Shown here in pieces: positions 39,527-63,723 of a stretch of 64,000 nucleotides of DNA. Numbering within the stretch: the stretch's first letter is position 1; each line of letters opens with the position of its first letter. The stretch covers positions 250 to 64,249 of the forward strand of contig JAFGHI010000010.1 in assembly GCA_016930235.1 (NCBI GenBank), given 5' to 3'. Both the position numbers and the translations under genes were made by a program. The notes beneath the pieces were generated by a model that saw only the letters and a list, made by a program, of their open reading frames with translations, was not told where the DNA came from and ran no database searches. The stretch is from Candidatus Omnitrophota bacterium (GTDB lineage: Bacteria > Omnitrophota > Omnitrophia > Omnitrophales > Aquincolibacteriaceae).

Positions 39527-39833
39527 CCATCGGGATCACAAACGTCCCGACTTCACAAGCACCGACCAAAATGCGCCTTACCATATAGACCGTCCCCTTA
39601 CCTAACCCTGTAAAAAAACCGTACCACGGACCGCCTTCCATTTCATTGCCTATTCCGCATGGAATCTCCGCAACACTGGAAACAATATTCACAAGGCCTC
39701 GGCCGAGTTTAATTCCGGAATCCGTAACCAAATCCCCTGTCGTCGCTTCACCTGCCAGAGCGTAAGGTGCGATACCCCACATCAACATGACGAACACAAG
39801 AAACATGATTGTCGTTTGCTTTTTCATAATCAC
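39492..39833 (-). CDS. small secreted protein, putative exosortase-system-associated (TIGR04073-like)
   Basis: 113 aa with a signal peptide and a KLGRGLVNI motif followed by a G-rich core (GFFTGLGKGTVYMVRRILVGACEVGTFVIP). This resembles the TIGR04073 family as recalled; there is no database check. Confidence 0.45.
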   Translation of the reverse strand: MIMKKQTTIMFLVFVMLMWGIAPYALAGEATTGDLVTDSGIKLGRGLVNIVSSVAEIPCGIGNEMEGGPWYGFFTGLGKGTVYMVRRILVGACEVGTFVIPMDATLPPVCQMD

Positions 39834-51900: not shown

Positions 51901-53959
51901 AGCGACCGGGGACTTGATCTAGGGTATCAATTTGGACCGGGATCCCCTGCAATCCACTAGGAACAACACCTTCTGATACTAAACGGCGTTCAACACCTAA
52001 GTGAGGCAAAACACCTGCAGGAAGTTTGGAAAGGTTAATGGCATCGCCGGCCGCAAGAACGGGGTAAGTAAAACCATCGGAGGTCGTGGCTGTCTGGAGA
52101 AGATTCAAGATATTTTGTTCGGTGAGGTCGCCTTGGGCGTCCAGATCGCGGATCCCTTGAATGAAACGTTCGATATTCTGAAGCCATTTTTGACGGAGTT
52201 TTTGGATGCTTTCTTCATCCAGGATTTCATCGATAAAGAGGGTATACTTCCCTGCTTGATCTAATCTCTTTTGGCCTGCCAAATCTCGGACAATTTGATC
52301 ACGCCAATGTTTTAAAAGGGTGCCGGGGTCTTCACCGCTTTCCTCAACCAGCTTATCGCGAGTCGAACGGATAAAGGCTTTGTAAATATTGATTCGGTCA
52401 TTCTCGACCCGGAAATACCCTTTCCAAGCCACCTCACCCCGCATATTTTGGCGGTAACTCGTTTCATCAGGAACCGAACTGATTCTTGGCATTACCAGAA
52501 CATAAGAAATTCCCTCTTGGCGGAAACGCTCAGTCAAACCTTCGGTATGAAAACCGCCAGCGATTAGGACACTGGAACTGTGTGAAGAGTAAAGAGTATC
52601 TCGTGAAGAGCTGCTCTGCATCTTTTGAATCAAATTTTGGTAAAAAGCCTGATCACGCGCTTCGGCTGTTTGATAAAAAGCGATGTGATGTTTTAAATCG
52701 TCTTGTCCCAGAGGGATTTCCTCAAATTCTTGACCTTGGATTATAGTTTCGATACGTTTCCAATCCTCATAGCCGATATTCAATTTTGCGAGCCTCGTAA
52801 GGAGATCCAGATGAAGGCCTCTGCGGTTAAGGTCCCGTTCAAGGTCAGTTCGGTAGAATTTCTCCTTCACGGATTCTGTATACGCCTGGAATTCCTTAAA
52901 AAGCCTTGTGCCGCGAAGATCCTTCATCCTCAGCTGATTTTGCATAAGGGGCTTAAGAGTGTTTGACACTTCAAGAGAAATCCCCTTTTCTTCGATGAGC
53001 TCCTTCATGAATAGCGCAAAGGCTTCGGGAGTTATTTGGGATATCTGAAAGGCCTGCCGTTTTTTATGAAAACGTTTAAGGTCCTCACGCCCGCCATTTG
53101 TCGAATCACCTTGATGCAAGAAATCCTCGACTTTTTCGGCAAGGGCCATGACTTCCCGGTCTAAATGAACGCGGTCCACGAATTGATTTTCGTATTCCCC
53201 CAAAATCAAATCGAGCTCGGACCCTTTGGCCAGCTTCTGATAATTTGAAAGTTTCTTCAGAACGGTTATGAAGGTTTCCAAATTTTCACCAAAATCCTGA
53301 AGCAAGCGATCGATCGCGAGAAGTTCTTCGGGATACGTGTTTTGTTTTTCTTCTTGAAGCCCTTTTTCCGCAATTGAAATTCTCCGGAGGAAGTCTTCTT
53401 CTTTCCCTGCCGCCTGAAGAAAATAGGCCAGCCCTTGTTCATAGAGATCCCAATTCTCAATCCCCTCATATTGGCCCTCGACATGGTTAAGAATCGCGGC
53501 AGCCGTACTTCCTGTAAGCTCCCCTTTTTCGTGATAATCATTTAATACCTTTTTTAATAATTCCTGATCCGGAAAACTTCTGAGGATCTGAGGATCCAAT
53601 CGGCTAGCAGCACCTTCTAAAGCGATGAGGTCCACACCGTAAGTCTCTTGAAAATATCCGATAAGCCTTTGAATATTTAGCTGAGCTTCAGGAATAGCGT
53701 GGGCATCTTGAATAAGGACAACGGTCTGATCGTTTTGGCCTTGATACCTTTCAAGAACCTCTCCGATCTTTTCCGGGATTTCGATCTTTGAAATTTCAAA
53801 GGGTATAGATTTCTCTAATTTTTTGTCAGCCAAAGGTAAGAGATTTCCCGAGGCGTATACAGGCAAACTTAGATGGTTCGTCACAAAGAAAGTCATGACG
53901 ACTATTAAAGCCACTGATTTAATGAGTGTAGACCTCTCCTGCATGAAGTCTCCCTTCAT
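39968..53959 (-). CDS. giant (4663 aa) secreted/multi-pass membrane protein with internal duplication, embedded PEP-utilizing phosphotransfer module and ten RSELR motifs
   Basis: A single uninterrupted 13,992-nt ORF. It has an N-terminal signal peptide (…LSLPVYA|SG) and hydrophobic TM clusters near aa 1425-1455, 1521-1600, 1945-2025, 2603-2625 and 2722-2785. Aa 3430-3500 resemble a PEP-utilizer phosphohistidine swivel domain (GGTSLSHWVTFARDLGIVVIP). Aa 3555-3800 resemble the PEP/pyruvate-binding TIM barrel (GVGLFRTEQL ... GSNDLMVSINQVGRDD). The second ATG at 53944 has the better SD (AAGGGAG). Confidence 0.85.
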   Translation of the reverse strand: MKGDFMQERSTLIKSVALIVVMTFFVTNHLSLPVYASGNLLPLADKKLEKSIPFEISKIEIPEKIGEVLERYQGQNDQTVVLIQDAHAIPEAQLNIQRLIGYFQETYGVDLIALEGAASRLDPQILRSFPDQELLKKVLNDYHEKGELTGSTAAAILNHVEGQYEGIENWDLYEQGLAYFLQAAGKEEDFLRRISIAEKGLQEEKQNTYPEELLAIDRLLQDFGENLETFITVLKKLSNYQKLAKGSELDLILGEYENQFVDRVHLDREVMALAEKVEDFLHQGDSTNGGREDLKRFHKKRQAFQISQITPEAFALFMKELIEEKGISLEVSNTLKPLMQNQLRMKDLRGTRLFKEFQAYTESVKEKFYRTDLERDLNRRGLHLDLLTRLAKLNIGYEDWKRIETIIQGQEFEEIPLGQDDLKHHIAFYQTAEARDQAFYQNLIQKMQSSSSRDTLYSSHSSSVLIAGGFHTEGLTERFRQEGISYVLVMPRISSVPDETSYRQNMRGEVAWKGYFRVENDRINIYKAFIRSTRDKLVEESGEDPGTLLKHWRDQIVRDLAGQKRLDQAGKYTLFIDEILDEESIQKLRQKWLQNIERFIQGIRDLDAQGDLTEQNILNLLQTATTSDGFTYPVLAAGDAINLSKLPAGVLPHLGVERRLVSEGVVPSGLQGIPVQIDTLDQVPGRSELRSMTSQQMARHLARALSSSRLALDATMSFSRQNLSDPLILQMLQGMFEPHLTRVLDALSVFDQLLGEPPVPVHESEIPLIEGFEGLIMCLETLSRGSRMPLGATSAALKAKMEIIGSYAAKLRSRVLSLRILQFQKQGFMSVDKGASAIDLSQTESRRAFVVNGLETMKIIGEELTLADKAIGEKIIMDEEARQYQKELTETRLHGVIQSIVLVMNLLWDGIQGDVVDAGALYWFLRRLSGKISQFNLALSDLTKMSFYQREPAFEEKIAILDNVRGVLDLWLEQIKAVANIGDDKPIEKSVIQEAVTRLPSKQAIQEMDMPDLLFAIYRMVQLSELMMPYLDSKDPAEVKQLEQTLRNLMVEARMRESVLVSGRSELRQSLINDYFLALINADVAIDRLQRVLEQELTEGAAIAERIDQLNGALLPDVLVQLRVLGTHLEGDVRDDDVRELTSLQRLQINLVQVTNILGGSIYAMNPNVDAAVIEIQSIEERLQGRIQAAMELSRNEIEEQTESLIFGFNPEMWVQDTLERIAEWETWPDAKLYERRISIKRAGKTLQWLDILPKALDAIHRLNPLQARVLIYEGKLRRGEVEAVSADTRSELRAEIQDLLANAKNKGIDVKARQDALRELTGRGLALSQSGMDALQVMNDLRDLVGDGTAMPLIRVSAANTLLMLMNYSLASDNEALRAQALDYSWSVEVLGKLSGAMDLMEAIFTDEAITPEVVVQWGELWGDFMVGAVLMAKIFKGSAFMYQQEMFLILVSDKVGKVHVPAYNAAKRLGVFDQFQAFAYAGVIREKVDAIFGPLQRSELRAEKAIAKKESWDIRLTKYLASLVFDLSVLFGVPVLGIPAIYDLGVSPAAVFFLLAGFAYFLYFTGRKLKLGERFSNIMVGLLSFVLTFGVVSFLHMKDVRDVQARQEVGISRTTTPEAPRPPPEIAPASIEKAAPVAPIRDIPEPNVIEAVKRVLQGEQSSIGKAALTDEQIDEYLRLIIDKNAKNFETRLIPLVKIVDAIVALIDSDKSPEYRENVRKLLTRTVVVESDQLRADEQYRGGPGAGVANVEVNIGDGSGTAEYLLTRILQRADWKAIVQRVFYDVDETTIRRFASSKDKSSRELREYLRTHPAASIFLARVKYRLFRSPIPFGENEQILYWAIYYNGSPKAKRAAKVDNFGAIIKAARAKVAGKSYPLSVTQPIEIDGIAVLPRDLEEFEVWRLVRQEIEKTSSLETSERSELRADQFRMLKRIIDWENVRHFLVSSLMTVLSLTMASAMIVRFGHHLGVPLLAVFVLAAGSGILLLGTNWFYRSGKRVFDIFTGYMLAVLAFGFVLVIDRQISRVAAGTVKEPSSIIIAPLDQAPLEAGAPADVTVVPQTPAVTKPFEIPLEVSPQEEQPLEEHVTALTPMDQNLRLQIDKNALDFETRLIPLVQIVDAVLALTDSEESPEYRENIQKLLTRTLVVESDQLQTDEFYGGEPGSAEYLLSRVLGREDWTAMAMPIFYDVDEVTLRWFASGQEASSRDFQEYLKVHPAAAVFLARIKYLLIPVPLPKGNNDQILYWANYYNSSPQAQSAARSDHFMGYIRAVRNVVANNTYLLKAAEPLVFDGGRRIIFTSELDEFTVWNLVARQIQKTKVPAVAGKSLGRSELRKPARAEPAITSDAAWIHEGRAHDYSEWMRVSEYEFLDAIRSKVNRKNEEKFAWYFNSGFDVIRALFTTNATQLIMSDQATFGEKVSEEGEEYQPLLRERVHASRVDEGGVHGILTMSFLGINIRTLFLMSLEELGVRDYTINRLELGRDRWTISFVWRHPEEGREKLRTVYFLGGEQIEELSSLPMELQKAIAENGGLDLTLEKAPNYYYEDIKRSPAPGEEFQGRREIYQVNSIKRDLLKRGGFAIGDIEKVREYPSSNNLLTSALADFALVSSLALWWKGIFFTWGNGGLEIAQRKSGEPMLRWAGDDAAGVNLRSEFRDEDLTGLRGEFAGWLDQKINNPVYRDLWLRLSNDAEITEILEDEDLNIQERIQEVVDVLDEDMLYNSIFAAGFRWFLVGSMTAMAGIVFLIRVAISWDEGNIPFALSCSVLTLMAAIAVTLSYQVIRSWRWRIELLIHHLQQFAIHQRYVDVPSVPVQAESKSQRSELRTGPNNLILRGSSPAMNVIASGEIVTWEREAKRVNFSLVRPFDTPREAAQKVENEVHALTNIWRRVLDESERQMSLGEQMQEVLGLLLEEAIYRVRHQESRSDEVLRQMLDEMKRELAEQTAPAPTTVYAMGFIQGSVIPALVNREDFIHLPDEDHNKKVREVLIQTAKDRLMTKVFDLFLNLPFGLNTDDSKLADGQKEASYTRRRMFADNTVYGMTIDEHGRPKTIKMDVFERLAYHLDKGKTPQKALQIIIDLLNAHIANFRNLPSGELFKRMIQVNEELRGYVESIQEDLDTYDYIFEMSDLEEEVQVKKEEEVRRHEEVMVDVLDQFLDAITASYEAEIQKRISAMVKKKEDEASIAAVDRTLHEEAHTNIEKWKAWVKRFDFQVRQDILKTGRSIEYLTALFYMRHFMDLRAQQTFENEAGVLERFWEGHKKIVLEMPLEGEVPAEMEFLPPGVVTQIRQWVGEEQQHAVEEILRMIFDEISRRVRENRQHAAEVFQNVLDEIRSGQWERIQPDDPFQAGIISYFQETMIPMFNAYADNRGGEGRRVNDVEPEALEFLMRYYDRARFGPTQQVDRDLVVFAKTIENERDLYHLLSSLRGHGRVVAIVSPGGTSLSHWVTFARDLGIVVIPAADFEAAGLEFSKETLQGWAMADGREGFVVLRPDYQTRDTWFARRESYADLDAFFLARADEPVFFAGREILFYVDDTKPEDFQRRAELRSIVERHGGKGVGLFRTEQLAAHPGWQGIENDRVRFAQTIQGILMQPFFQVRRPFIVRIFDVQMDKRPKILTEGRKPDEVRRILEIPLEEGRNRLGVRFYLDKEGTHPHYGDLFKQFREFGKMQLMVFFQAQVAAYNRLEELAREGKGPQPEVNLHILIPDIIDQRDINGILELIEEAKTEYLSGIVEEEQEKARQIINQILIGFMFEKENAMISPDADFYAVGSNDLMVSINQVGRDDPKAQKKLRQLHPNLVGKIAEVAASMNSKGKWVTVDGVWGGSRRLLLALLALRLIRPEIEVYQVAETNQVPEMLEFVRNTTPEEIESQIKPLVERILAGGEQMPSVDEFDQAVSRLQNTIQDRILQGNVFQRFKIARRQRPRSELREISDISSQVQAKSISPDAVQPVPEVERVPAEQPQRQQPYQQQPGLSETSQVSEVGGTVDISIGSRLRDSLNSFLGLTGTEKTVVLTGESDLSQYQNPQWKESQDIVFSILTKGTVVETNETDVAWLVLNPGGRFISIQEEPFTVSDLQAFKALKWSDVQRGTLLDDNRQYHYLVATKSFRGPGIPQTEEVRSELRQEMPIREVFDILYEKGLLRQNERFVVMGEKAASTFAEEYKRTAKPPAPRVMTLDALDQDIAGYPEKGIADFNEGGWNEASYREQFLRLFELVKSRPDMQQGVSVYLPLPERPQMSEGYRVSNPLWDAFEIFTEVLVGIAADSGVQIEYHLRNPLLPGIGKIEIMLPLASWQQIRLQKQGQSLLQAKPKPEPALKKLAVMKKPEGWDGTWTPEELYGTPMEPRSELRLTWVDSALTIARSLIPAEALAADFVLPDQSEVLSAVRPIVAHQIDGAELEQVLKRAVEIAVEELLSRQGFGTAFEDRPEVYSMTSKIAERAVRDLVTFMQQVADTYQGKVTLGLDIPELKDGISRLDRESAIGQYGDIIRSYFLRGELDRFAILGDKKAANALIQVLKSIPIPFTAASSPRQVTILNSGQNVLPVMEFSDEILMEQTAQVLPVGIRLTSEAKLESQVLGRMTQTAFAFASALMARTSTDAKNVQAELLKAVYLFRQMGEGPENQIIVFDSEGRPIVNVSAIDRLLRQEVQAALQIQKAA
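46952..48181 (-). repeat. giant-gene internal duplicated unit, copy 2 (aa ~1927-2336)
   Basis: Has the same TM cluster (HHLGVPLLAV / FGVPVLGIP; FYRSGKRVFDIF / FTGRKLKLGERF), Pro-rich linker and soluble module (NALDFETRLIPLVQIVDA...ILYWANYYNSSP...). It also ends in RSELR. Confidence 0.8.
48182..49450 (-). repeat. giant-gene internal duplicated unit, copy 1 (aa ~1504-1926)
   Basis: The unit is a TM cluster, a Pro-rich linker and a ~240-aa soluble module (NAKNFETRLIPLVKIVDA...ILYWAIYYNGSP...) ending in RSELR. It is paralogous to copy 2 at both protein and DNA level (e.g. ccaataaagaatttg at 48431 and 47221). Confidence 0.8.
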
Positions 53960-54232: not shown

Positions 54233-54880
54233 TTAAAATCCCTGTTCGATCAGCTTGGAGAGCTTCAATTGGGTGCTTTTACGCGGCTTCAATTCGTCCG
54301 ATAAGATCTTGAGATACCTCGTAATGAGGTCAATTTCCAGATTCACAGGGTCCTTCACCTTTTTCCTGCCTAAGGTTGTCTCTTTCAAGGTATGAGGAAT
54401 AATCGCAATCTTGAACCGGTTACCTTGGACGCCCTGAATTGTCAAACTGATCCCGTCAACCGCGATGGACCCTTTATGGGCCAGTAATTTCGTGACTGCC
54501 TTGTCGGCTTGAAACCAAAAGATCCAGTTCTTCCCTCGTCGTTCAATCTTCGTAATGATCCCACGGCCATCGACATGTCCTGTCACAAAATGACCTCCGA
54601 GAGGATCTCCTGCTCGAAGCGATCTTTCGAGATTGAGGAAGCTGCCGATACGGAGTCCTCCTAATGTTGTTGCCGCCAAGGTTTCTTTAACAACATCCAC
54701 CTCGAAATATTTCGAAGTCGCTTTGACAGCCGTCAGACAAACACCTTCGCAAGCAATACTTTCACCGATCTCTAACCGCCTTTTCGCTTTCCTCTGAAAT
54801 CCGATCCGAAAACGGACAATGCCGCCCGTTTCGGTTTTCTTTAAGACCTTCCCTTGATTTTGGATAATACCTGTAAACAT
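54233..54880 (-). CDS. ribE: riboflavin synthase (alpha subunit)
   Basis: 215 aa with the duplicated lumazine-binding repeats MFTGII ... GHVDG. Confidence 0.88.
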   Translation of the reverse strand: MFTGIIQNQGKVLKKTETGGIVRFRIGFQRKAKRRLEIGESIACEGVCLTAVKATSKYFEVDVVKETLAATTLGGLRIGSFLNLERSLRAGDPLGGHFVTGHVDGRGIITKIERRGKNWIFWFQADKAVTKLLAHKGSIAVDGISLTIQGVQGNRFKIAIIPHTLKETTLGRKKVKDPVNLEIDLITRYLKILSDELKPRKSTQLKLSKLIEQGF

Positions 54881-54896
54881 GTAAAGCTCCTCTCTT

Positions 54897-56045
54897 CTAT
54901 CGAATATTCTTTAATGATGCCTTGATTTTTCCTACAAAATGCCAATCCTCACCTAGCTTTTCAACATGATCGATCTCGCATTCAATTCCATCATCCGGAA
55001 GTCTGAATCCTTCTCCCTCGACGGACGTTTTTGCACTGCGCCCTCCGATCAATTTTGGCGCGATAAGCCAGTGAATTTTATCGACATGTCCCCCTTCCAA
55101 AAGCGACCAGGCCAGTTCCCCGCCCCCTTCACAAAGCAACTTGGCAACCCCTAAAGACGCCAACTTCTTCAACAAATCATCGAGATCTAATTTCCCGTCT
55201 TTGTCATGGACAGGAAGAAGAACCTTTCCTTGCTTCGATTTTTCATGAGAACGTCTCTGCACCAATGTCTTCTCACTGACAGCGAGCAAGGTTAATTGCT
55301 CGCCCTTAAAAATATTCGCCTTTGGCGAAACCTCGAGATTCGGATCGATCACAACGCGCCAGGGTTTGCCTTCGATCTGATTCCTCACCTTGATCCGGGG
55401 ACTCAGGTTCGGATTGTCCTTAAGCAAGGTATTCTTCCCGATCAGGATTGCGTCTTGTTCAGCCCTGAGTTCGTGAACAAAACGCCTGGCCGGCACCGAA
55501 GTTATCCATCGTGAGGCCCCTGTCTTTGTCGCAATCTTCCCGTCCAAGGATTGGGCCATTTTGAGAACCACAAAAGGTTTCCGACTGCGGATAAATTTAA
55601 AAAACGACTCATTCTGTTTTTCGACCCGCCCCGCCAAAACACCTGTCTTGACTTTCACGCCGGCTTTTCTTAACGCCTTCACTCCTTTGCCGTGATGTTT
55701 GGGGTTCGGATCCAAGGCCCCGATCACTACCTTTTGGATACCGGCATTCAAAATAGCCGCAACGCACGGAGGCGTTTTCCCCCAGGTCGAACAGGGCTCT
55801 AACGTCACGCATAAAGTCGCCCCTTTGGCTTTTGAACCTGCACGTTTTAAGGCCGCGACTTCGGCATGATCACCGCCAAAAAACCGGTGATAGCCCTCTG
55901 CGACAATCCTGTTCTTTTTCACTACGCAAGCCCCAACCATCGGATTGGGGCTGACCGTCTTTCTCCCCTTTTCGGCAAGATGTAGAGCTCTTAGCATCCA
56001 CTTTTCGTCCGTTGAAAGATAGCCGGTTTCAGACAGGAGATGCAT
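54897..56045 (-). CDS. ribD: bifunctional diaminohydroxyphosphoribosylaminopyrimidine deaminase / 5-amino-6-(5-phosphoribosylamino)uracil reductase
   Basis: A CMP/dCMP deaminase motif (HAEVAAL ... PCSTWGKTPPC) is followed by a RibD_C reductase domain. The start is likely MHLLSETGYLSTDEKWMLRAL. Confidence 0.88.
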   Translation of the reverse strand: MHLLSETGYLSTDEKWMLRALHLAEKGRKTVSPNPMVGACVVKKNRIVAEGYHRFFGGDHAEVAALKRAGSKAKGATLCVTLEPCSTWGKTPPCVAAILNAGIQKVVIGALDPNPKHHGKGVKALRKAGVKVKTGVLAGRVEKQNESFFKFIRSRKPFVVLKMAQSLDGKIATKTGASRWITSVPARRFVHELRAEQDAILIGKNTLLKDNPNLSPRIKVRNQIEGKPWRVVIDPNLEVSPKANIFKGEQLTLLAVSEKTLVQRRSHEKSKQGKVLLPVHDKDGKLDLDDLLKKLASLGVAKLLCEGGGELAWSLLEGGHVDKIHWLIAPKLIGGRSAKTSVEGEGFRLPDDGIECEIDHVEKLGEDWHFVGKIKASLKNIR

Positions 56046-56481
56046 CCGATTCATTTGTTGAAACCTGATAGCGGGGTTTTTCAGAATGGTTGATCTTATC
56101 GAGGATGCCGTTGACAAATTTCCCGGAATCTTCCTGGGAAAATTTCTTGGCCATATTCACCGCTTCGTTGATGGAAACTTTCTGAGGAACATCTTCCAAA
56201 TAAAGGAGTTCATAAGTCGCAGCACGCATGATGTTTTTATCAACCACCGCCATTCTCCCAAGTTCCCAATTCTCGGCCGCGTTCGAGATGACCTTGTCAA
56301 TCTCCTGCTGATTCTGGAGGGTGCCTTTCACTAAAACTTCTGCAAATTCCTGAACTTCCTTGGCAGGCTGACCCTGATGGCTCCAGAAATTTTCTATGAT
56401 CTCGGAGAGCTTCCCAGGATTCATTTCAACCTGATACAGAATCTGAAGCGCATATTCGCGCGCAAGCGTCCGTTTTCTCAT
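56029..56481 (-). CDS. nusB: transcription antitermination factor NusB
   Basis: A 150-aa NusB fold (REYALQILYQVEMN...). Confidence 0.85.
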   Translation of the reverse strand: MRKRTLAREYALQILYQVEMNPGKLSEIIENFWSHQGQPAKEVQEFAEVLVKGTLQNQQEIDKVISNAAENWELGRMAVVDKNIMRAATYELLYLEDVPQKVSINEAVNMAKKFSQEDSGKFVNGILDKINHSEKPRYQVSTNESDASPV

Positions 56482-56987
56482 CTTTTGTTTTTCACCCGGC
56501 GTTGCCGGCCCTTCACACGCGTGTTCTGATCCATCTGCCGGTTTAAATCAGCAATCTCAATGGCTGCCAAGGCCGCATGAGCCCCTTTGTTCCCGGCCTT
56601 AAGTCCCGCCCGGTCGATGGCCTGCTCAAGCGTGTCTGCGGTAATCACAGCCGTTGCAATCGGTATACCGGTTTCCAACGCCACCTGCGATATCCCGCGT
56701 GTGACTTCGTTGCATACACATTCATAATGATAAGTCCCGCCTCTTAAAACACAACCCAATGCAATGATGCCGTCCAATTTCCTAGCCGCCAGCTTCTTAC
56801 AAAAGTACGGAATTTCTAAAGCCCCCGGCACCCAAGCAACTTCAATATCTTTTTGAGAAACCCCGGCCTGTTCTAAAACCTCCACGGCACTTTCAAGCAA
56901 GCGCTTTGTAATGAATTCATTAAACCTGGCAACGACAATAGCAAAACGCTTTCCGTCTCCTTTTAAGTTCCCGCGGCGTATGATCAT
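56478..56987 (-). CDS. ribH: 6,7-dimethyl-8-ribityllumazine synthase
   Basis: RFAIVVARFNEFIT is the lumazine synthase signature. The start is MIIRRGNL at 56987, adjacent to the ribBA stop. Confidence 0.88.
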   Translation of the reverse strand: MIIRRGNLKGDGKRFAIVVARFNEFITKRLLESAVEVLEQAGVSQKDIEVAWVPGALEIPYFCKKLAARKLDGIIALGCVLRGGTYHYECVCNEVTRGISQVALETGIPIATAVITADTLEQAIDRAGLKAGNKGAHAALAAIEIADLNRQMDQNTRVKGRQRRVKNKR

Positions 56988-56988
56988 C

Positions 56989-58200
56989 TCAAAGATTAAG
57001 CAGGTGTCCCAGCTTCTCCTTTTTTGCTTTGAGGTATTTGGCATTGTGGGCATACCGGGGTGTTTCAATCGCCACCCGCTCCACAACCTTCAATCCATGT
57101 CCTTCCAAACCAACGATTTTCCGGGGGTTATTGGTAATCAAACGCAGTTTTGTCAAACCAAGGTCTCTTAAGATTTGTGCCCCGATACCATATTTCCGTA
57201 AATCCGGTTTGAATCCCAAATGTTCATTAGCTTCTACAGTATCCATTCCCTTATCCTGCAAAGCATAGGCCTTGAGTTTATTCGCAAGCCCAATCCCACG
57301 GCCTTCCTGACGCATATAGAGAATGATCCCGGACCCTTCTTCTTCAATCTTCTCCATCGAAGCAATCAGCTGATCCTGGCAATCACAGCGAAGAGAACCC
57401 AAGATATCGCCCGTAAAGCATTCCGAATGAACCCGAACAAGTGTCGCACCTCCAGAGGGAACCTCCCCCTTAATCAAAGCAACATGCTCTGTCCCATCGA
57501 CAAGGGACCGGTACAGCTTGATTTTCCATTCCCCGAAAACGGTGGGTAGGTGGGATTCACTGATCATCGCAACGACTTGGTCGAATTGACGGCGGTACTT
57601 AATGAGATCGCGAATGGTTCCGATCTTCAATTGATGTTCCTTCGCAAAACGGATAATTTCAGGAAGCCTGGCCATCGTCCCGTCATCATTGACGATTTCA
57701 CAAATGACACCGACGGGTTCTAATCCCGCAAGGCGTGCTAAATCACAAGCCGCTTCGGTGTGTCCGGCCCGGGCTAAGACGCCGCCTTTTTTTGCTTTGA
57801 GAGGAAAAATATGCCCTGGAGCCACCAAATCGGAGGCCCCTGCCTTGGGATCCGCCAAAACTTCAATGGTCCTGGCCCGATCATAAGCCGAAATCCCTGT
57901 GGTGGTCCCGAGTCTTGCATCCACAGAAATCGTAAAGGCCGTTCCCATCGGGTCCCGTGAAGGAAGAATCATTTCCTTAAGTCCAAGGGCTTCGCTTCTT
58001 TCTTCGGTTAAGGGAGCGCAAATCAATCCGCGTCCGTATTTCATCATGAAATTAATCTTCTCCGGCGTAACCATGGAAGCCGCCAGAATAAGATCGCCCT
58101 CATTTTCCCGAGCTTCATCATCGGTCATAATCACAAGACGACCCTGACCGATTTCCTTGATAATTTCTTCAATAGAACTTACGACTGTCTTCTGATCCAT
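56989..58200 (-). CDS. ribBA: bifunctional 3,4-dihydroxy-2-butanone-4-phosphate synthase / GTP cyclohydrolase II
   Basis: The DHBP synthase half is followed by GTP cyclohydrolase II ([11 protein letters not shown] ... C-x2-C). The start MDQKTVV is at 58200 with an AGGAG SD 5 nt upstream. Confidence 0.88.
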
Positions 58201-58210
58201 AACCGCTCCT

Positions 58211-58249
58211 AAAAATAAAAATCCCGAAAATAGAAAATCTATCTTCGGG
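58211..58249 (-). terminator. intrinsic terminator hairpin of the FMN riboswitch expression platform
   Basis: On the minus strand, CCCGAAGATAGATTTTCTATTTTCGGG is followed by ATTTTTATTTTT immediately upstream of the ribBA SD. Confidence 0.65.
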
Positions 58250-58428
58250 TTGATGGATACACGACGCAAATTGTCTTCTTCTCCCGTCCGGACTTTACCG
58301 TCGGCACCTGAATTCCACAGGTTCAGTTTTCCTGAATACTCTCAAGAAAAGTCGCGGGCTTTCACCGCCGGTCTGGATTTGTGCTTTCCTAAATCCTTTA
58401 CGCACTCACCATGCCCCGAAGATTGGCC
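58250..58428 (-). promoter_or_regulatory. FMN riboswitch (RFN element) aptamer
   Basis: On the minus strand, ...TCTTCGGGGCATGGTGAG...GGCGGTGAAAGCCCGCGAC...GGAATTCAGGTGCCGACGGTAAAGTCCGGACGGGAGAAGAAG matches conserved RFN blocks (GGTGAAA.TCCC ; CCGACAGTGAAAGTCTGGATGGGAGAAGGA). Confidence 0.75.
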
Positions 58429-58595
58429 GTATGATATCAGGAACCCTTTTTATTGTCAAACTTTTAAAGGGATTTAATATATCGTATCTTGTTTATATAT
58501 AGTTAGTTACGACATATTTCGTGTCCTGTTTTTTTGACTGTTTTTATTTACGTGTTACTATTTAATTAAGGGCACCTTCGGGTGCTCTTAAGGGA

Positions 58596-58690
58596 TTCTG
58601 ATAAAGGCAAACCCGGAGCAATCCGGGGACGCAAAGCCACAGATCCCGTAGAAGCTCAAGTTTATACGGGATGGCTGGGTTACCAAGTCC
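58596..58690 (+). promoter_or_regulatory. c-di-GMP-I (GEMM) riboswitch aptamer, copy 1
   Basis: AAAGGCAAACC-[CCCGGA GCAA TCCGGG]-GACGCAAAGCC-[ACAGATCCCGTA...TACGGGATGGCTG]-GGTTACC reproduces the Vc2-type blocks GGCAAACC / GGGACGCAAAGCC / GGGUUACC. P2 is capped by a GNRA tetraloop. Confidence 0.8.
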
Positions 58691-58718
58691 TCGCGGATCT
58701 TTTACAGATCGGTAGCGA

Positions 58719-58872
58719 TTCTGAAAAAGGCAAACCCGGAGTAATCCGGGGACGTCCCGTCAAACTGCTCGCGCAGCTTGAGGGACTGCGTCATCCCTTC
58801 GGGGATGATCGTAGCAAAGCCACAGACCCCGTAAAAACTCAAGTTTATGCGGGGTGGCTGGGTTACCAAATC
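58719..58872 (+). promoter_or_regulatory. c-di-GMP-I (GEMM) riboswitch aptamer, copy 2, with ~60-nt insertion
   Basis: The same conserved blocks are present (GGCAAACC, CCCGGA GTAA TCCGGG, CAAAGCC, GGTTACC). A compensatory change in the P3 stem (CCCCGTA/TGCGGGG versus CCCGTA/TACGGG) supports RNA structure. An insertion forming two hairpins (CGCAG...CTGCG ; CATCCC TTCG GGGATG) sits between GGGGACG and CAAAGCC. Downstream, CCTCA...TGAGG can occlude the GAGGGGAGGA SD. Confidence 0.65.
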
Positions 58873-58925
58873 CGCCAGAATTTGGCCGAATCAGAACCTC
58901 AGTCTTGTTGAGGGGAGGATTCGGC

Positions 58926-59501
58926 GTGTCAAAGAAAGTCGCGGCTAAATGGGTACGCGCATTGAGCCTGGTCATAGTCTTCACACTTTTTTTGTCCAGT
59001 AAAGCAACTGCCCAAATGACGGGCCGGGCCCTCTCCTTCCAAGATCTAGCCAGTCAACTCCATTCTCCGGAAGAAATTGCACATTTTATGTGGAAACATT
59101 TCGTCTTCGAAAAAGACCAGCGGCTTTTCGGCGAGGAAGAATACTGGCAATCTCCCGAGGAATTTTTTGAAAACCGGAAAGGCGATTGCGAGGATTTTGC
59201 TCTCTTTGCTCAGGCTATCCTTAAAACCAAGGGAGTCACCTCATTTCTGATGAATATTTACGGTTCACAATTTGCTCATACGGTTCTTGTCTTTAAAGAG
59301 GACGGTAAATACAACGTTGTTGACGGAACAAAGGTCAAAAGATACGAAGCCGAAGGTTTAAGGGAACTCGCCGACAAGATCCATCCGAAGTGGGATAAGA
59401 GTGCTATCGTCAAACCGGCCAAGGAATCGAAACACGGACAGATTCTCGCGCAATTCGCGAAGGAAGCCAAGATCAAACGCTCGATGCGTTCTAGCGCCTA
59501 G
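58926..59501 (+). CDS. secreted transglutaminase-fold cysteine peptidase, BTLCP/LapG-like
   Basis: A GTG start lies 6 nt after the GGAGGA SD. There is a signal peptide (…LSSKATA|Q). The putative Cys-His-Asp triad is GDCEDFA ... FAHTVLV ... VVDGT. Its spacing (~36 and ~15 aa) resembles that of LapG-type bacterial transglutaminase-like cysteine proteinases. Confidence 0.6.
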   Translation: MSKKVAAKWVRALSLVIVFTLFLSSKATAQMTGRALSFQDLASQLHSPEEIAHFMWKHFVFEKDQRLFGEEEYWQSPEEFFENRKGDCEDFALFAQAILKTKGVTSFLMNIYGSQFAHTVLVFKEDGKYNVVDGTKVKRYEAEGLRELADKIHPKWDKSAIVKPAKESKHGQILAQFAKEAKIKRSMRSSA

Positions 59502-60939
59502 GTTGTTTACGCCTCTCGACTAAAGCAGGACCTTTTTCAAGCAACCTTTTTGCGATGACCATACAGGTCTTTACAATAATTGCTAAATCTAAATTGAAGC
59601 TGAGGTGTTCGAGATAATACAGGTCATAGTCCATGTTCTCATGGATGAGGAGCCTTTTCCTGTCATCGCTGATCTGCCATAAACCCGTCATCCCGGGCTT
59701 GACCGTTAATCTTTCCCGTTCAAGCGGGCCGTATTTTTCTACCAGAAAAGGCATCTCAGGACGCGGACCGACGAGACTCATGTCCCCTTGGATCACATTA
59801 ACAAGCTGCGGCAGTTCATCCAGTCCTGATTTTCTCAAAAGACCGGCAAAGGGATTGATGATCTTTGATTTCTTCGAAAGCTCTGGGGAAATTTCATGCT
59901 CTTTGGTCCCCGATTTGAGCGTTCTGAATTTGAACATTGTAAATTTCCTGTGATCCTGCCCTATCCGGACTTGCCTGAAAATGGGCGACTGTTTTGAATC
60001 GATCCGCAAAGAAACCCAAATGGCAAGAAGGATTGGAGATAACAGAAAAAGCAAGGTCGAAGCGATTAAAATATCCAGGACCCTTTTGGTGACCATATAG
60101 GAGCTGCGGACAAAACCTTTGCGGAAACTCACAAGCGGTATGCCTCCGATATTTTGAAGTTCTGCCCGTTCAATATGAAACTGATAGAGCGACGGGATAC
60201 TCCAGCACTCAATCTCAAGTTCACGACAAAGCTGGTAAACCTCAATAATTTCATGTTCTTTTAATCCCCGGTGGGCGATGAAAAGAATGGAAGCTTCACG
60301 CTTTTTTTTGAGCTTCTTCAGCTCTTTCAAGTCTCCGAATACCGGAAGATTATCCGGTTTCTTGACCAATTTGGAAATATCGTCATCGAGAAAGCCCAAA
60401 ACACGAATGCCCAGCTTGGGAGATTGATGGATCCACCGTTCTAATCTCTGGCCGTGATACCCCGCTCCATAAATCAATGCATGCCGGTTGGCAATCCCCT
60501 GACGATTGAACCAGGCAAAAAGATGCCGCATTGCAAAACGTTCAATGCTGATCACCCATAATGAAACAAACATCGAATAAAAGGTCGCCAATCGCGAAAA
60601 CTCGCTTTCACGATAAAAGAAAGAAACCGCAAAAACAAAAAAGTAAATCGACCAAATCCCCTTAAAGATCAGACTTTGTTCTTCGACACCGATAACACCC
60701 ATTTCCGGTTTATAGAGCCCGATCGCTTGAAAGACAATGAGGGCAACCACGGGAAGGGCCCAAACAATCGGCAGGAAATCCGAGAAATACTGCCAATTCC
60801 CATGCCACGGGAAAGTAATCCAAAACCAATAACCGATCACAAGGGAAGCCTGAAAACAGACAAAATCTGCAGCCATCATCAGCAACGTCAGCCCATAAAA
60901 GGTTTTTCCCTCAAAAGCTTTCATTTTACCTTCTTCCAA
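59491..60939 (-). CDS. undecaprenyl-phosphate sugar phosphotransferase (WbaP/polyprenyl glycosylphosphotransferase family)
   Basis: 482 aa with N-terminal TM helices, a central CoA-binding-like domain and a C-terminal bacterial sugar transferase motif (DELPQLVNVIQGDMSLVGPRP). Confidence 0.85.
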   Translation of the reverse strand: MEEGKMKAFEGKTFYGLTLLMMAADFVCFQASLVIGYWFWITFPWHGNWQYFSDFLPIVWALPVVALIVFQAIGLYKPEMGVIGVEEQSLIFKGIWSIYFFVFAVSFFYRESEFSRLATFYSMFVSLWVISIERFAMRHLFAWFNRQGIANRHALIYGAGYHGQRLERWIHQSPKLGIRVLGFLDDDISKLVKKPDNLPVFGDLKELKKLKKKREASILFIAHRGLKEHEIIEVYQLCRELEIECWSIPSLYQFHIERAELQNIGGIPLVSFRKGFVRSSYMVTKRVLDILIASTLLFLLSPILLAIWVSLRIDSKQSPIFRQVRIGQDHRKFTMFKFRTLKSGTKEHEISPELSKKSKIINPFAGLLRKSGLDELPQLVNVIQGDMSLVGPRPEMPFLVEKYGPLERERLTVKPGMTGLWQISDDRKRLLIHENMDYDLYYLEHLSFNLDLAIIVKTCMVIAKRLLEKGPALVERRKQPRR

Positions 60940-61684
60940 TTTTCTCTAAGAATACTTGATAAAAAAAATAGGGATTGCCAAAAACATACCGCTGAAACAA
61001 CCGAACCGGGTCCTGCAAGAGCCGGTAGAGCCACTCCATCTGCATTCGGATCATCCACTCCGGTGCCCTCTTAAGGACACCTGAAGTATAATCAAAAACA
61101 GCGCCCCCCGTCAAAAATATCCGCGCATCCAACTTCTCCCAATATTGATTTAACCATTCTTCTTGAAGAGGCATCCCGAAACCCAGGATCAGGATATCCG
61201 GCTTAAGCCGATTGATCTCCTCAATCACGGCCTCATTTTCTTTCCCTTCCTTCTCAAAATATCCGTCCCGGTATCCCCTGACCTGCAAGTTGGGGATCTT
61301 CTCACGTAAGGCATCCCGGGCCTTTTCAGCAATCCCCGGTTTACCGCCAAGAAAATAGAAACTGTAATTCTTGCCAGCGCACCAATCGGCCAGTTCCCAA
61401 ATCCACCGGGCATAAGTCACCTTGGGCGGCGGCCCATAGCCTTTCCATTTGAGGGCCCAGCGGACACCATCACCATCACAAAAAACCAGCGGTGCCTTCC
61501 TGAACAAATCAGACATCCATGAACGTTGGATCGCCAGATTCATGGCATTCACATTGACATTCAGCACCAAGGCTTTTTCCTGATGATCAATCACTTGGCT
61601 GATATAATTGTGAATCTCCGCCGTCCCGACCTTATGAACCGGGACCCCTAAAATCTCTTGTTTTTCATACGAGTGGGATATCAT
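60926..61684 (-). CDS. WecB/TagA/CpsF-family glycosyltransferase
   Basis: 252 aa showing the family pattern (VNVNAMNLA ... FLGGKPG ... GFGMPLQEEW). Confidence 0.8.
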   Translation of the reverse strand: MISHSYEKQEILGVPVHKVGTAEIHNYISQVIDHQEKALVLNVNVNAMNLAIQRSWMSDLFRKAPLVFCDGDGVRWALKWKGYGPPPKVTYARWIWELADWCAGKNYSFYFLGGKPGIAEKARDALREKIPNLQVRGYRDGYFEKEGKENEAVIEEINRLKPDILILGFGMPLQEEWLNQYWEKLDARIFLTGGAVFDYTSGVLKRAPEWMIRMQMEWLYRLLQDPVRLFQRYVFGNPYFFYQVFLEKIGRR

Positions 61685-61748
61685 GATGCCTGTCCTCGTT
61701 AAATCCTTCTTTTATCTATCGACGTATTGGCTTTAAAGTTATAGCCTT

Positions 61749-62414
61749 TCATGATTGAAAACCATCATAGGCAACAAAAGATTTGACCAAGCCCATGAAT
61801 CTTTCTTCCTTAATGAACGCTCCAGGAAAAAGGGCTTGGATATCCTTTTTACGAAGAAGATGGATGGAATCAATAAGGGCTTCCGCCTTCTTACGGTCCG
61901 TCTCTTTTTTCTGCCATCCGAGGGCAAAACCCTGAACCAATTTTATCCTGCAAATCCTGGGAAGGAATTGGAAGAACGGAAACAAGAAATGCGGTTCGAT
62001 GGGAAAATACCGATTGGGCGTTTGAATATAAAAGCGTTTCCCCACACGCCTGATTTCACGGGCCATCGCGGTTTGATGTTCGATCGACCCCACATGCTCA
62101 AGGACCGAATTAGAAAAAACAATGTCAAATTTCTTATCCTGATATTCGGGCATCGAACGCCCATCCCCCCGACAGGCAACCAAGTTCGAAGCGTCCGTCC
62201 GCACGTCTTCAGGATTCAACAGGGTTATCTGAAAATCCGGATTGTCGAGAAGGCCAAAACTTCGCCAAAAAGTCTCCGTACCTCCGACATCTAAAACCCT
62301 AAGGGGTTTAGGCAACGGTTCAATCAGCTTAAGAAATTCCGCCATTCGTCTTTCTCGAAATTTGAATGAGATCGACTTATGACTGCGATAATCCGCCCAC
62401 GAAGGAAGTGTCAT
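61749..62414 (-). CDS. class I SAM-dependent methyltransferase
   Basis: Carries a VLDVGGTETF SAM motif. The start is ambiguous between 62414 and MAEFLK at 62345. Confidence 0.7.
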   Translation of the reverse strand: MTLPSWADYRSHKSISFKFRERRMAEFLKLIEPLPKPLRVLDVGGTETFWRSFGLLDNPDFQITLLNPEDVRTDASNLVACRGDGRSMPEYQDKKFDIVFSNSVLEHVGSIEHQTAMAREIRRVGKRFYIQTPNRYFPIEPHFLFPFFQFLPRICRIKLVQGFALGWQKKETDRKKAEALIDSIHLLRKKDIQALFPGAFIKEERFMGLVKSFVAYDGFQS

Positions 62415-63723
62415 CTCTTTTTCTTTCCTGTTGCCAGGAAACCCATCTCCTCATCACATTCAGATGAAATGCCTCAAAAAGTCCAACCCACGAAAAGTAA
62501 AGGAAGGCCAAAAGTTGCGGCGCATCCAAATCATCGGTCGCCATCCAAATCGTCATGGCAAACAAGATTGCCCCCAAGCCCCTCCAAAAAAGAAACAAGT
62601 TTCGCTGAGTCACCACATAGTTCTTTAAACCGTACCATCTAACCATTAAGACTGCCTGAAGGATAAGAAATAAGATAAACCCCGCTAGACCTGTCTTATA
62701 AAGAAGCGATAAATAGGTCGAATGGGATCCGATAGGGATAGAAAAAGCAGAGGCATCCCTTTCCTTTAAACCAAACCCGAAAATCCAATCGACCCCCTCG
62801 AATTGTTCAAGGCTGTATTCATATAAAGCCAAACGGTTCGTGGTACTTCCCTCCCGCGCACTTAAAAGCCATGCCAAAGCACCCTCAATCCAAGGCATCG
62901 CCAAAAACAACAGCCCCAGAAAGAGCAGCATCCACAAAATAAAATATCGCCTCTGTAAAAATAACATCATAATGACGCTTGCCATGAAAGCAACGAGACA
63001 AGTTCTGGAAAGACACATAACCAATCCTGCAAAGTTAACGATAAAAAGAAAGAGAAAAACGGGATGACCTAACTTTCTTTCAACCGCCGCCCATGTCATC
63101 AGCGAGAGCAGGATAATCACCATGACACCTCCGGTCGCCGTGGAATACGGTGTCAACGCCATAAAACGGGGCCGTAACCCTTCAGCAAACCAATCCCAAT
63201 GAAGCGGTTTCATGACTAACGAATTCAAGACCAAGGTTTCCTTTCCTAGATAATCTGTCAGTCCATAAAGGGGCGTTTTGATAGCAATTTCCTGATGGAC
63301 GAAGAACGCCGCAAAAGCCGTTGCCAGGACTAAAAAAGACATCAACCACGCGAACCGGTAAAACACCGAAAGCAGCGACCGGATATCCTTTAATTCAAAA
63401 GCATTGGTCAAGACCACCACGAGCATCAAACCCACTCCCCAAAAACTGAGATTATATAGGGAAGCGACAACACGTTTGCCTTCCGCCGTGGGAGCGTGGA
63501 TCAGGATGGAAAAGGCATAGATCAAGAAAAGGCCCAGGAGCAGAAAGAAGGAAGGCATCAAAACAACCCCCTGGTCTTCTGTGTTTGAAACAAAGATTAG
63601 CCGGATGAAAAGATAAAGGGTAACGGCATGAAAGATAAAAAGGTTCAAACCGAGCGCCCACCAGCAAACAGCACCCACCACAGTCCACTTCCAGACACGA
63701 AAAAAATGGTTGGCTTCTGTCAT
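62377..63723 (-). CDS. O-antigen ligase/polymerase family membrane protein (Wzy_C)
   Basis: A 448-aa polytopic protein with a large periplasmic loop. It has the LSRTCLVAF and GSHSTYLSLL motifs characteristic of the O-antigen ligase family. Confidence 0.75.
   Translation of the reverse strand: MTEANHFFRVWKWTVVGAVCWWALGLNLFIFHAVTLYLFIRLIFVSNTEDQGVVLMPSFFLLLGLFLIYAFSILIHAPTAEGKRVVASLYNLSFWGVGLMLVVVLTNAFELKDIRSLLSVFYRFAWLMSFLVLATAFAAFFVHQEIAIKTPLYGLTDYLGKETLVLNSLVMKPLHWDWFAEGLRPRFMALTPYSTATGGVMVIILLSLMTWAAVERKLGHPVFLFLFIVNFAGLVMCLSRTCLVAFMASVIMMLFLQRRYFILWMLLFLGLLFLAMPWIEGALAWLLSAREGSTTNRLALYEYSLEQFEGVDWIFGFGLKERDASAFSIPIGSHSTYLSLLYKTGLAGFILFLILQAVLMVRWYGLKNYVVTQRNLFLFWRGLGAILFAMTIWMATDDLDAPQLLAFLYFSWVGLFEAFHLNVMRRWVSWQQERKRDDTSFVGGLSQS

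Follow-up and report, generated by a model that had tools for sequence, protein, structure and literature searches.

A secreted LapG-related peptidase behind tandem c-di-GMP-I aptamers in Candidatus Omnitrophota, with a putative translational OFF switch

The stretch analyzed here, called the window below, comprises 64,000 nucleotides (nt) of a Candidatus Omnitrophota bacterium (NCBI GenBank assembly GCA_016930235.1, contig JAFGHI010000010.1, positions 250 to 64,249 of the forward strand). Its gene at 58926-59501 encodes a periplasmic or secreted cysteine peptidase, assigned by sequence profiles and a structural model to the transglutaminase-like BTLCP/DUF553 superfamily; other members of its family occur throughout Candidatus Omnitrophota. 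Directly upstream lie two tandem aptamers of the c-di-GMP-I class of cyclic di-GMP (c-di-GMP) riboswitches. Taken as a whole, it is probable, though far from secure, that this is a LapG-related peptidase under a tandem c-di-GMP-I OFF switch, that it serves in envelope or matrix remodelling, and that a giant open reading frame (ORF) nearby is an incidental neighbour. The original prediction for this region had proposed that the riboswitch-controlled peptidase processes the giant protein. The gene and its leader have the following features.

58534-58561, forward strand: putative sigma-70-like promoter of the peptidase leader (TTGACT, 16 nt, TACTAT, with TG), a candidate from a consensus scan only
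58566-58591, forward strand: stable 5'-terminal stem-loop with a UUCG loop, formed in every leader fold; probable transcript start
58597-58688, forward strand: c-di-GMP-I aptamer 1 (Rfam 66.3 bits, E 1.8e-13, above the gathering threshold of 59)
58720-58871, forward strand: c-di-GMP-I aptamer 2 (Rfam 31.1 bits at relaxed thresholds; 52.7 bits, E 7e-13, with our own model)
58885-58925, forward strand: hairpin sequestering the Shine-Dalgarno (SD) site (-21.9 kcal/mol alone; present in all 15 clade-1 leaders)
58926-59501, forward strand: secreted transglutaminase-fold cysteine peptidase of the BTLCP/DUF553 superfamily, 191 amino acids (aa) (Pfam, PDB profile, AlphaFold model and fold matches)

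The peptidase ORF begins with GTG, and GGAGGA lies six nt 5' of this start. A longer in-frame alternative begins with the GTG at 58854, within aptamer 2; because the orthologues align from 58926, we took the latter as the start. Read by eye, the N-terminus has the form of a Sec-type signal, with a K/R-rich part, a hydrophobic stretch and ATA before Q (MSKKVAAKWVRALSLVIVFTLFLSSKATA, followed by Q), and the A-x-A-Q pattern is kept in the orthologues in a sequence alignment. The motifs GDCEDFA (C88), FAHTVLV (H118) and VVDGT (D132) are all present. Aligning 29 homologues showed no variation in G86-D87-C88-E89-D90, which includes the acidic pair D87 and E89 on either side of the catalytic Cys (D-C-E), or in H118. 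Position 132 is Asp in most homologues; the more distant members have Asn there, often with an Asp next to it. The Pfam families DUF553 and Peptidase_C93/BTLCP (PF06035, residues 43-133) matched with 33.9 bits (cut-off 20.5) and 31.9 bits (cut-off 27), respectively. The BTLCP-like secreted Cys-His-Asp peptidase of the original prediction is thus borne out by both profiles, by the triad in the alignment and by the Sec signal.

A PDB profile search with the peptidase family returned LapG first (4u65_E, E 1e-11; 4fgo, 4e-10) and then the CPR-C4 protease. The top Foldseek matches of the AlphaFold model (pLDDT 90.1) were again LapG (4u65_E, 4fgo and 4fgp) and CPR-C4, each at a probability of 1.00; vasohibins and other enzymes of the transglutaminase fold ranked below them. 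However, the NCBIfam LapG equivalog model NF045674 gave 32.9 bits against a cut-off of 320, in a local match over residues 41-107, so that the peptidase is a distant relative of LapG and not an orthologue. Homologues numbered 101 and were mostly from Omnitrophota. We also considered a true LapG-type periplasmic protease, with its LapD-like receptor and its type I secretion system (T1SS) adhesin encoded elsewhere in the genome and the riboswitch as a second layer of control. LapG is indeed the closest solved relative, and the residues equivalent to the invariant D87 and E89 bind Ca2+ in LapG. Nevertheless, the equivalog score is low and the match partial, DUF553 outscores Peptidase_C93, and neither the major ORFs of the 64-kb window nor the annotated conserved neighbour families include a LapD, GGDEF/EAL or T1SS gene. 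We therefore regard a true LapG system as quite unlikely.

Aptamer 1 scored 89.9 bits with a covariance model that we built from 14 related aptamers. It folds alone into P1, P2 and P3 with a GCAA tetraloop, and its P1 5' strand reaches back to 58592 (GGGAUUCUGAU), next to the 5'-terminal stem-loop; the promoter candidate sits just 5' of that stem-loop. Aptamer 2 has the same core, but 60 extra nt (58755-58814) separate its P2 bulge GAC from the closing G-C, and this insertion brings it below the Rfam gathering threshold. It folds into P2, two inserted hairpins and P3 (z = -5.7), and its P3 differs from that of aptamer 1 through compensatory changes. In the Vc2 c-di-GMP riboswitch, the ligand is contacted by G20, A47 and C92 (PMC5888326). 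Both window aptamers read ..AAAG-GC.., ..GACGC-A-AAGCC.. and ..GGGUUA-C-C.., with G, A and C at the three ligand-contact positions. The Vc2 numbering was mapped onto these columns by way of the Vc2 sequence. The best-scoring Rfam model is the c-di-GMP-I-GGC variant (RF03167; GEMM-I clan CL00126), which has a G at the intercalating position (consensus GACGC-G-AAgCc). Both window aptamers have A there, and the column is an invariant A in the 14 related aptamers. With this A, and with G and C at the other contacts, we read the two aptamers as canonical c-di-GMP-I aptamers despite the model name, and both are predicted to bind c-di-GMP. The direct c-di-GMP riboswitch control of the original prediction holds insofar as aptamers stand directly upstream of the gene; they are two in tandem and not one, and control by the ligand is predicted.

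A genome scan with the single peptidase sequence gave no matches, and a profile-guided scan with one genome per species succeeded. It returned 80 loci, the best 21 of which (L001-L021) were all from Candidatus Omnitrophota or unclassified metagenome-assembled genomes (MAGs). By Rfam and by our own model, 18 of the 20 testable orthologous Omnitrophota loci (L001-L009, L011-L017, L020 and L021) have one or more aptamers immediately 5' of the peptidase gene; tandem aptamers occur in six loci (L005, L006, L009, L011, L012 and L013), and many of the upstream aptamers carry insertions of 30-70 nt. No aptamer was found upstream of the peptidase in the other two testable loci, L010 and L018, in the Rfam search, and L019 stands outside the count, its sequence ending 23 nt upstream of the peptidase match. 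Our own model also placed aptamers a few hundred nt upstream of a BTLCP-like match on five GC-rich contigs (L053:9509-9610, L056:9490-9594, L061:8816-8920, L066:8223-8326 and L071:9502-9593), four of which (L053, L056, L066 and L071) are labelled Alphaproteobacteria. The L056 gene is a Peptidase_C93 (55.9 bits), with 11 nt between the end of the aptamer and the start codon. The 18 of 20 Omnitrophota loci, together with the Alphaproteobacteria-type contigs, argue that the association of a c-di-GMP-I aptamer with a BTLCP-type peptidase is maintained by selection and recurs across phyla. As far as sequence comparison can tell, the arrangement is evolutionarily maintained and is not a coincidence.

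Several features of these loci deserve mention in their own right. The remaining GC-rich contig, L061, is labelled Candidatus Kuenenia stuttgartiensis; its gene order is the same as in the Rhizobium-labelled L056 and its proteins are near-identical, and the label is probably a binning error. Insertions in Omnitrophota c-di-GMP-I aptamers occur at at least three different places, namely the P2 5' strand (a two-hairpin insertion), the position after the P2 bulge, to which window aptamer 2 (58755-58814) belongs, and a branched, extended P3. Besides that aptamer, insertions are borne by L001:5941-6079, L009:1565-1688, L012:9613-9770, L013:940-1249, L011:426-571 and aptamers in L015, L017 and L021. 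Because several of them score under the Rfam gathering threshold of the GGC model, standard scans under-count the aptamers of Omnitrophota. Four aptamers have A in place of G at the G20-aligned position (L004:9845-9923, L006:9694-9783, L011:311-395 and L013:940-1074), and three of these stand first in a tandem pair. A G20-to-A change marks the cyclic GMP-AMP-responsive GEMM-Ib riboswitches of Geobacter, and a tandem pair of an A20 and a G20 aptamer could respond to two distinct cyclic dinucleotides. The last aptamer is preceded, at a distance of 10-20 nt, by a conserved element, CUUUU(U)NCA (58700-58712 in the window, with equivalents in L001, L005, L009 and L011-L014). This element shows complementarity to the 5' junction of that same aptamer, CUGAAAAAG; it could act as an upstream anti-aptamer and, where a leader has tandem aptamers, could also couple them.

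The anatomy of the expression platform suggests, short of proof, a translational OFF switch. The SD hairpin has an outer stem (GCCGAAUC/GAUUCGGC) and an inner stem (CCUCAG/UUGAGG) with GGAG in the internal loop, and the last pair of the stem abuts the GUG start of the peptidase. The outer stem covaries in L004, L006 and L011-L013 (UCGAAU/AUUCGA in L006, CCGAUU/AAAUCGG in L004, and GCCGAAUU/AAUUCGGC in L012 and L013). All 15 clade-1 leaders share the same end, which consists of the P1 3' strand CCAAAUC, a loop, GAUUUGG, GCCGAAUC, the internal loop AUCAGRA, the anti-SD strand CCUC.., a loop, the SD strand ..GAGG, GAUUCGGC and AUG. The P1 5' strand of the first aptamer (GRGGAUUCUGA in clade 1; GGGAUUCUGAU in the window) is a near copy of the SD-side strand GAGGAUUCGGC and is complementary to the anti-SD strand plus the conserved internal loop (AUCAGAACCUC). 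Pairing with the P1 5' strand may account for the conservation of the AUCAGRA loop, which is otherwise unexplained. The duplex between the P1 5' strand and the anti-SD strand has -10.7 kcal/mol in the window (top 3% of the locus background), -13.1 in L005 (0.3%), -13.1 in L009 (0.1%), -16.9 in L002 (0.4%) and -9.7 in L008 (0.9%), and the values in L001, L003, L007 and L008 range from -9.4 to -12.0 kcal/mol; in these loci the duplex stands out clearly from the local background.

These strands would form a four-strand exchange. Without ligand, the P1 5' strand GGGAUUCUGAU would pair with the anti-SD strand and the internal loop (AUCAGAACCUC) and leave the ribosome-binding site open. With c-di-GMP bound, the P1 5' strand would be locked into P1, the anti-SD strand would close on the SD site, and translation would fall. 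When the window leader was folded with the pairing of anti-SD and P1 strands forced, its energy was -168.9 kcal/mol, compared with -163.6 kcal/mol with both P1 helices forced, and the energy of ligand binding could tip the balance across this gap of 5 kcal/mol. In clade-2 leaders (L015, L017, L020 and L021) the element is a different one, GGUUUGCC, with complementarity to GGCAAAC of the aptamer core. Next to it, inspection by eye gives a CCGGA...UCCG(G) pairing around the SD site and the start codon. The clade-2 element would imply the same OFF polarity. The peptidase would then be made at low c-di-GMP, with the same outcome as for LapG and for ZmpI of Clostridioides difficile, but at the level of RNA. 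On the strength of the conserved complementarity, we put the OFF polarity at somewhat better than even. A metagenome scan for the leader pattern CCAAAT-N(3-22)-ATTTGGCCGAAT returned 120 loci, none of which encoded the peptidase or carried an aptamer, so these matches were taken as chance hairpins.

The genes on either side of the peptidase bear on both its polarity and its function. They are listed here together with the giant ORF.

39968-53959, reverse strand: giant modular membrane protein, 4663 aa, with 10 copies of RSELR (a nearby ORF, read here as incidental to the peptidase)
54233-58269, reverse strand: ribBA-ribH-nusB-ribD-ribE operon, divergent from the peptidase gene (Pfam)
58272-58427, reverse strand: flavin mononucleotide (FMN) riboswitch of the divergent rib operon (Rfam, 87.9 bits)
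59491-63723, reverse strand: exopolysaccharide (EPS) locus, convergent with the peptidase gene, with a priming glycosylphosphotransferase, a WecG/TagA-type glycosyltransferase, a methyltransferase and a Wzy-like polymerase or ligase (TIGR03025, Pfam)

The priming transferase of the window matched TIGR03025 (EPS_sugtrans) with 351 bits (cut-off 296). Neighbours were counted by ORF clustering over 22 loci. A ribBA homologue lies divergently upstream of the peptidase in 14 of them, with the remaining rib operon in 7-8, and a polyprenyl glycosylphosphotransferase adjoins the peptidase in 13, a WecG/TagA-type glycosyltransferase in 10 and a Wzy-like protein in 6. Farther from the peptidase are GT4 transferases and a MurJ/Wzx-like flippase. 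The peptidase thus lies between two conserved partners, the rib operon and a Wzx/Wzy-type exopolysaccharide locus, and because of these neighbours the peptidase is most plausibly an enzyme of envelope or matrix remodelling. The FMN riboswitch on the reverse strand and the tandem c-di-GMP-I riboswitches on the forward strand stand back to back in the 656-nt divergent intergenic region (58270-58925), an arrangement kept in the clade.

The same context might also speak for a function other than proteolysis, with the product acting as a transglutaminase, amidase or acyl-transferase on a polysaccharide, on peptidoglycan or on a lipid-linked intermediate of the neighbouring locus. The papain-like transglutaminase fold supports several chemistries, and the weaker fold matches of the model include PNGase, arylamine N-acetyltransferases and transglutaminases. 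Besides the conserved EPS context, a 390-aa gene stands directly downstream of the peptidase in L003, L007 and L016, and for its family Pfam gave a single signal, an SGNH/GDSL match of the L004 member that stays below threshold. However, the best sequence and fold matches of the peptidase, to LapG, CPR-C4 and vasohibins, are all to proteases, and we consider a non-proteolytic enzyme unlikely, although less so than a true LapG system.

c-di-GMP generally induces EPS, and a switch of the opposite sense would turn the peptidase on together with the adjacent EPS genes, so that the enzyme would mature or cross-link part of the matrix as a biofilm forms. In favour of this, the EPS locus is conserved next to the peptidase, and in six loci (L002, L005, L006, L011, L013 and L014) the transferase gene lies on the same strand, 110-175 nt downstream of the peptidase. 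Thermodynamic folding does not separate the two polarities. Yet we found no structure in which a ligand-stabilized P1 frees the SD site; the sole competitor for the anti-SD strand is the P1 5' strand, which would be unavailable once ligand is bound; and the transferase of the window is convergent with the peptidase and not co-transcribed with it. An ON switch therefore appears doubtful to us, although it is the most serious of the alternatives.

Returning to a LapG-related peptidase under an OFF switch that acts in envelope or matrix remodelling, we see the following points that weigh against it. Minimum-free-energy folds close the SD hairpin with or without P1 and hence did not discriminate ON from OFF, which is why the polarity argument rests on conserved complementarity. 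L004, L006 (second aptamer) and L011-L013 show the anti-sequestor pairing weakly or not at all, and an ON switch would be the more natural expectation in the six loci where the EPS priming transferase follows on the same strand. Aptamer 2 scores under the Rfam gathering threshold, and c-di-GMP binding by both aptamers is a prediction. The third triad residue of the peptidase is Asn in some homologues, and its activity as a protease, and not as a transglutaminase or amidase, is assigned from its family. Finally, synteny with the EPS locus names no substrate for the enzyme.

The giant protein had been proposed as that substrate. Several parts of the proposal agree with our analysis: the two ORFs are about 5 kb apart (4967 nt from start to start), and only ribE, ribD, nusB, ribH and ribBA with the FMN riboswitch lie between them. 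The protein carries exactly 10 copies of RSELR and one RSEFR, and RSELR occurs in no other frame of the window. About 0.014 copies would be expected from its amino-acid composition, and because the codons at these sites vary synonymously, the constraint acts on the protein. The caveat that the giant protein has a Sec signal and transmembrane segments and is not a T1SS adhesin also proved right. Besides the signal, hydropathy indicates about eight internal membrane segments (~3+3+2), the sole recognizable Pfam module is the phosphoenolpyruvate (PEP)-binding domain of a PEP-utilizing enzyme, and no RTX or T1SS features were found by Pfam. Given these segments and the PEP-utilizing module, some RSELR sites would be cytoplasmic and out of reach of a secreted enzyme.

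The circuit itself found no support. In a tblastn search of the giant protein against the 80 related loci, no homologue was found within 10 kb of the peptidase, and no ORF longer than about 800 aa lies near the peptidase in the orthologous Omnitrophota loci L001-L021. Co-occurrence of the BTLCP peptidase, the GEMM leader and a giant ORF was therefore absent at the neighbourhood level from all 21. A homologue of the window gene that follows the giant ORF (39492-39833) lies directly after ribE in L004 and ~1.5 kb beyond ribE in L008 and L014, which shows the giant ORF to be a lineage-specific occupant of the slot beyond the rib operon. Residues 640-1560 of the giant protein had no matches among 5.8 billion sequences, and a search with residues 1293-2340 in 1.84 billion representatives recovered nothing beyond the protein itself and three weak hits. 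With a middle part of the giant protein that has essentially no homologues and a peptidase family that is widespread, the conserved job of the peptidase cannot be the giant protein. We also considered whether the giant ORF might be recently acquired foreign DNA, but its G+C content is uniform (0.44-0.49) and it is compositionally native.

The RSELR motif follows a different partner. The N-terminal 620 residues of the giant protein have Omnitrophota homologues (P0106-P0116, 38-44% identity), in which LIQDAHAIPxAQ, EG and SFP are invariant and GIEDWxLYE and AGGFHxxG almost invariant. Seven homologues continue past this domain; there a variable linker bearing a related motif comes next, and after the linker come modules without homology between genomes. 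The linker motifs are RSEVR in P0108, RAEVR in P0110 and P0111, RAEAR in P0106 and a looser SAELR in P0107; P0114 has RSETR and RSEVR, one on each side of a region that probably holds a precomputed methyltransferase-family match (PF06325). MAG GCA_049324575.1 encodes an 870-aa homologue and then an ORF of at least 3279 aa with 12 R-[SA]-E-[VAIL]-R motifs spaced 200-450 residues apart (L201:10001-22613). In an AlphaFold model of the N-terminal domain (pLDDT 74), residues 624-695, which include the first RSELR (686-690), are of low confidence and probably disordered. From these sequences, RSELR reads as the local form of a family-wide R-[SA]-E-x-R punctuation motif, which travels with the N-terminal domain and not with the BTLCP peptidase. 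The repeated candidate cleavage motifs of the original prediction are thus genuine as repeats but go with this domain. The R-[SA]-E-x-R sites are candidate junction or cleavage points in Omnitrophota giant proteins. The DAH...EG...GGFH pattern of the domain had led us to consider a TraB/Tiki/ChaN/erythromycin-esterase-like hydrolase; Pfam and PDB sequence searches were empty and there was no significant fold match, with EreC (E 1.8) and ChaN (E 7.5) only among the non-significant ones.

Processing of the giant protein by the riboswitch-controlled peptidase, at RSELR or elsewhere, can be weighed against this background. In its favour, the genes lie within 5 kb, the motif is genuine at the protein level with its first copy in the probably disordered stretch, and the authors who described giant genes in Omnitrophota suspect post-translational cleavage, with the cleavage points stated to be unknown (bioRxiv 10.1101/2023.11.21.568195). 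A Planctomycetia contig, L023, offers a parallel, where a secreted DUF553 peptidase gene adjoins a c-di-GMP-I riboswitch that precedes an adhesin of the filamentous-haemagglutinin type of at least 2102 aa. On the other hand, neighbourhood co-occurrence is absent from the 21 orthologous loci, the middle third of the giant protein is an orphan while the peptidase family is widespread, and R-[SA]-E-x-R elsewhere follows the N-terminal domain, with no peptidase within 10 kb of it in L201, the one locus of that family examined. LapG-type enzymes cut at di-alanine sites, and the giant protein has no TAAG, PAAG or AAAG; some RSELR sites would, as said, be cytoplasmic. No assembly was common to both families among the ten proteins with accessions that were compared, a sample that is uninformative about absence. 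We consider such processing very unlikely. A link between the peptidase and the giant protein is unsupported and improbable, and the position of the peptidase 5 kb from the giant ORF is incidental. The more general version, in which the peptidase is a c-di-GMP-gated processor of R-[SA]-E-x-R giant proteins and low c-di-GMP leads to RSELR cuts and about 11 modules, seems to us a long shot; if true, it would be a bacterial polyprotein with riboswitch-controlled maturation.

The L023 locus (L023:2210-9678, from a Planctomycetia MAG) has the secreted DUF553 peptidase gene first and then a c-di-GMP-I aptamer (75 bits) with a terminator; the next ORF opens with a filamentous-haemagglutinin, two-partner secretion (TPS) domain (TIGR01901, 48.7 bits). 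In this trio the RNA controls the adhesin and not the peptidase. It hints at a weaker version of the giant-protein idea, in which a c-di-GMP-I riboswitch has taken the place of the LapD receptor for BTLCP peptidases of several phyla, with large surface proteins as their targets. This version is better supported than the polyprotein, but it is tentative and we would sooner doubt than accept it. The window itself holds a third c-di-GMP-I-like aptamer, at 14295-14423 on the reverse strand (Rfam 32 bits, own model 26.9 bits), whose P2 holds an insertion of 60 nt. A terminator-like hairpin and U7 come next, and the 5' arm of the hairpin overlaps the 3' part of the aptamer, which suggests an ON switch by antitermination. 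The ORF downstream (13804-14244, reverse strand) encodes a 146-aa PilZ-domain protein (Pfam, 47.4 bits), and the switch would thus control a c-di-GMP receptor.

Compared with known systems, the peptidase is closest in structure, by both sequence and fold, to LapG of the LapG/LapD/LapA system of Pseudomonas fluorescens and Legionella. The two enzymes have in common their secretion, a Cys-His-Asp triad in a transglutaminase-like fold, GDCED with its acidic flanks, and an ultimate tie to c-di-GMP, which for the window peptidase is predicted from its aptamers. Unlike a LapG orthologue, however, the window peptidase scores 33 against 320 bits, its c-di-GMP would be read by the mRNA and not by a LapD receptor, and it comes with no T1SS adhesin, retention module or di-alanine site. 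Control would moreover act on synthesis, whereas Lap control sequesters a pre-made enzyme.

In function, the closest case is ZmpI/PPEP-1 of C. difficile, a secreted protease that is repressed through a class I c-di-GMP riboswitch and that releases adhesins induced via class II riboswitches (PMC6366702). As in the circuit predicted here, a class I c-di-GMP riboswitch precedes the gene of a secreted protease, and fewer surface proteins are released when c-di-GMP is high; ZmpI is the direct precedent for Lap logic at the RNA level. It differs in being a zinc metalloprotease under transcriptional control, and its substrates, CD2831 and CD3246, are known, adjacent and riboswitch-induced. In Bacillota, tandem c-di-GMP-I riboswitches have been described upstream of transglutaminase-like putative cysteine proteases (PMC12452182); two or three tandem aptamers precede these genes, but phylum and protein branch differ (COG1305/Transglut_core there, BTLCP/DUF553 here). 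In view of these two precedents, calling the circuit previously undescribed, as the original prediction did, was too strong. CPR-C4 from the Candidate Phyla Radiation (PDB 7ob6 and 7pjo), the second-best match in fold and sequence, is likewise a small transglutaminase-fold Cys protease from an uncultivated, small-celled lineage, but has about 17-18% identity to the window peptidase in the Foldseek alignment. Our literature search found no paper linking riboswitches with Omnitrophota biology, and the Omnitrophota giant-gene papers searched make no mention of riboswitches, c-di-GMP or transglutaminase-like proteins; cleavage is taken up only in the 2023 preprint among them. The circuit is therefore of a known kind, in a new phylum and with unusually elaborated aptamers.

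These results indicate that Omnitrophota, an uncultivated phylum without genetics, use c-di-GMP riboswitches, with at least three aptamers in a 64-kb window, and that one conserved riboswitch target is a secreted LapG-like peptidase beside an exopolysaccharide locus. The Omnitrophota, Alphaproteobacteria-type and Planctomycetia loci, together with the published cases from Bacillota and C. difficile, suggest that a c-di-GMP riboswitch wired to a secreted protease recurs as a solution to the decision between attachment and release, which LapD and LapG solve with proteins. The wiring helps in predicting regulons and in picking candidates for biochemistry; it extends known biology and introduces no new principle. 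The R-[SA]-E-x-R motif is the more surprising result, as it offers candidate junction or cleavage points of the kind said to be missing in the giant-gene literature, and it merits a follow-up of its own.

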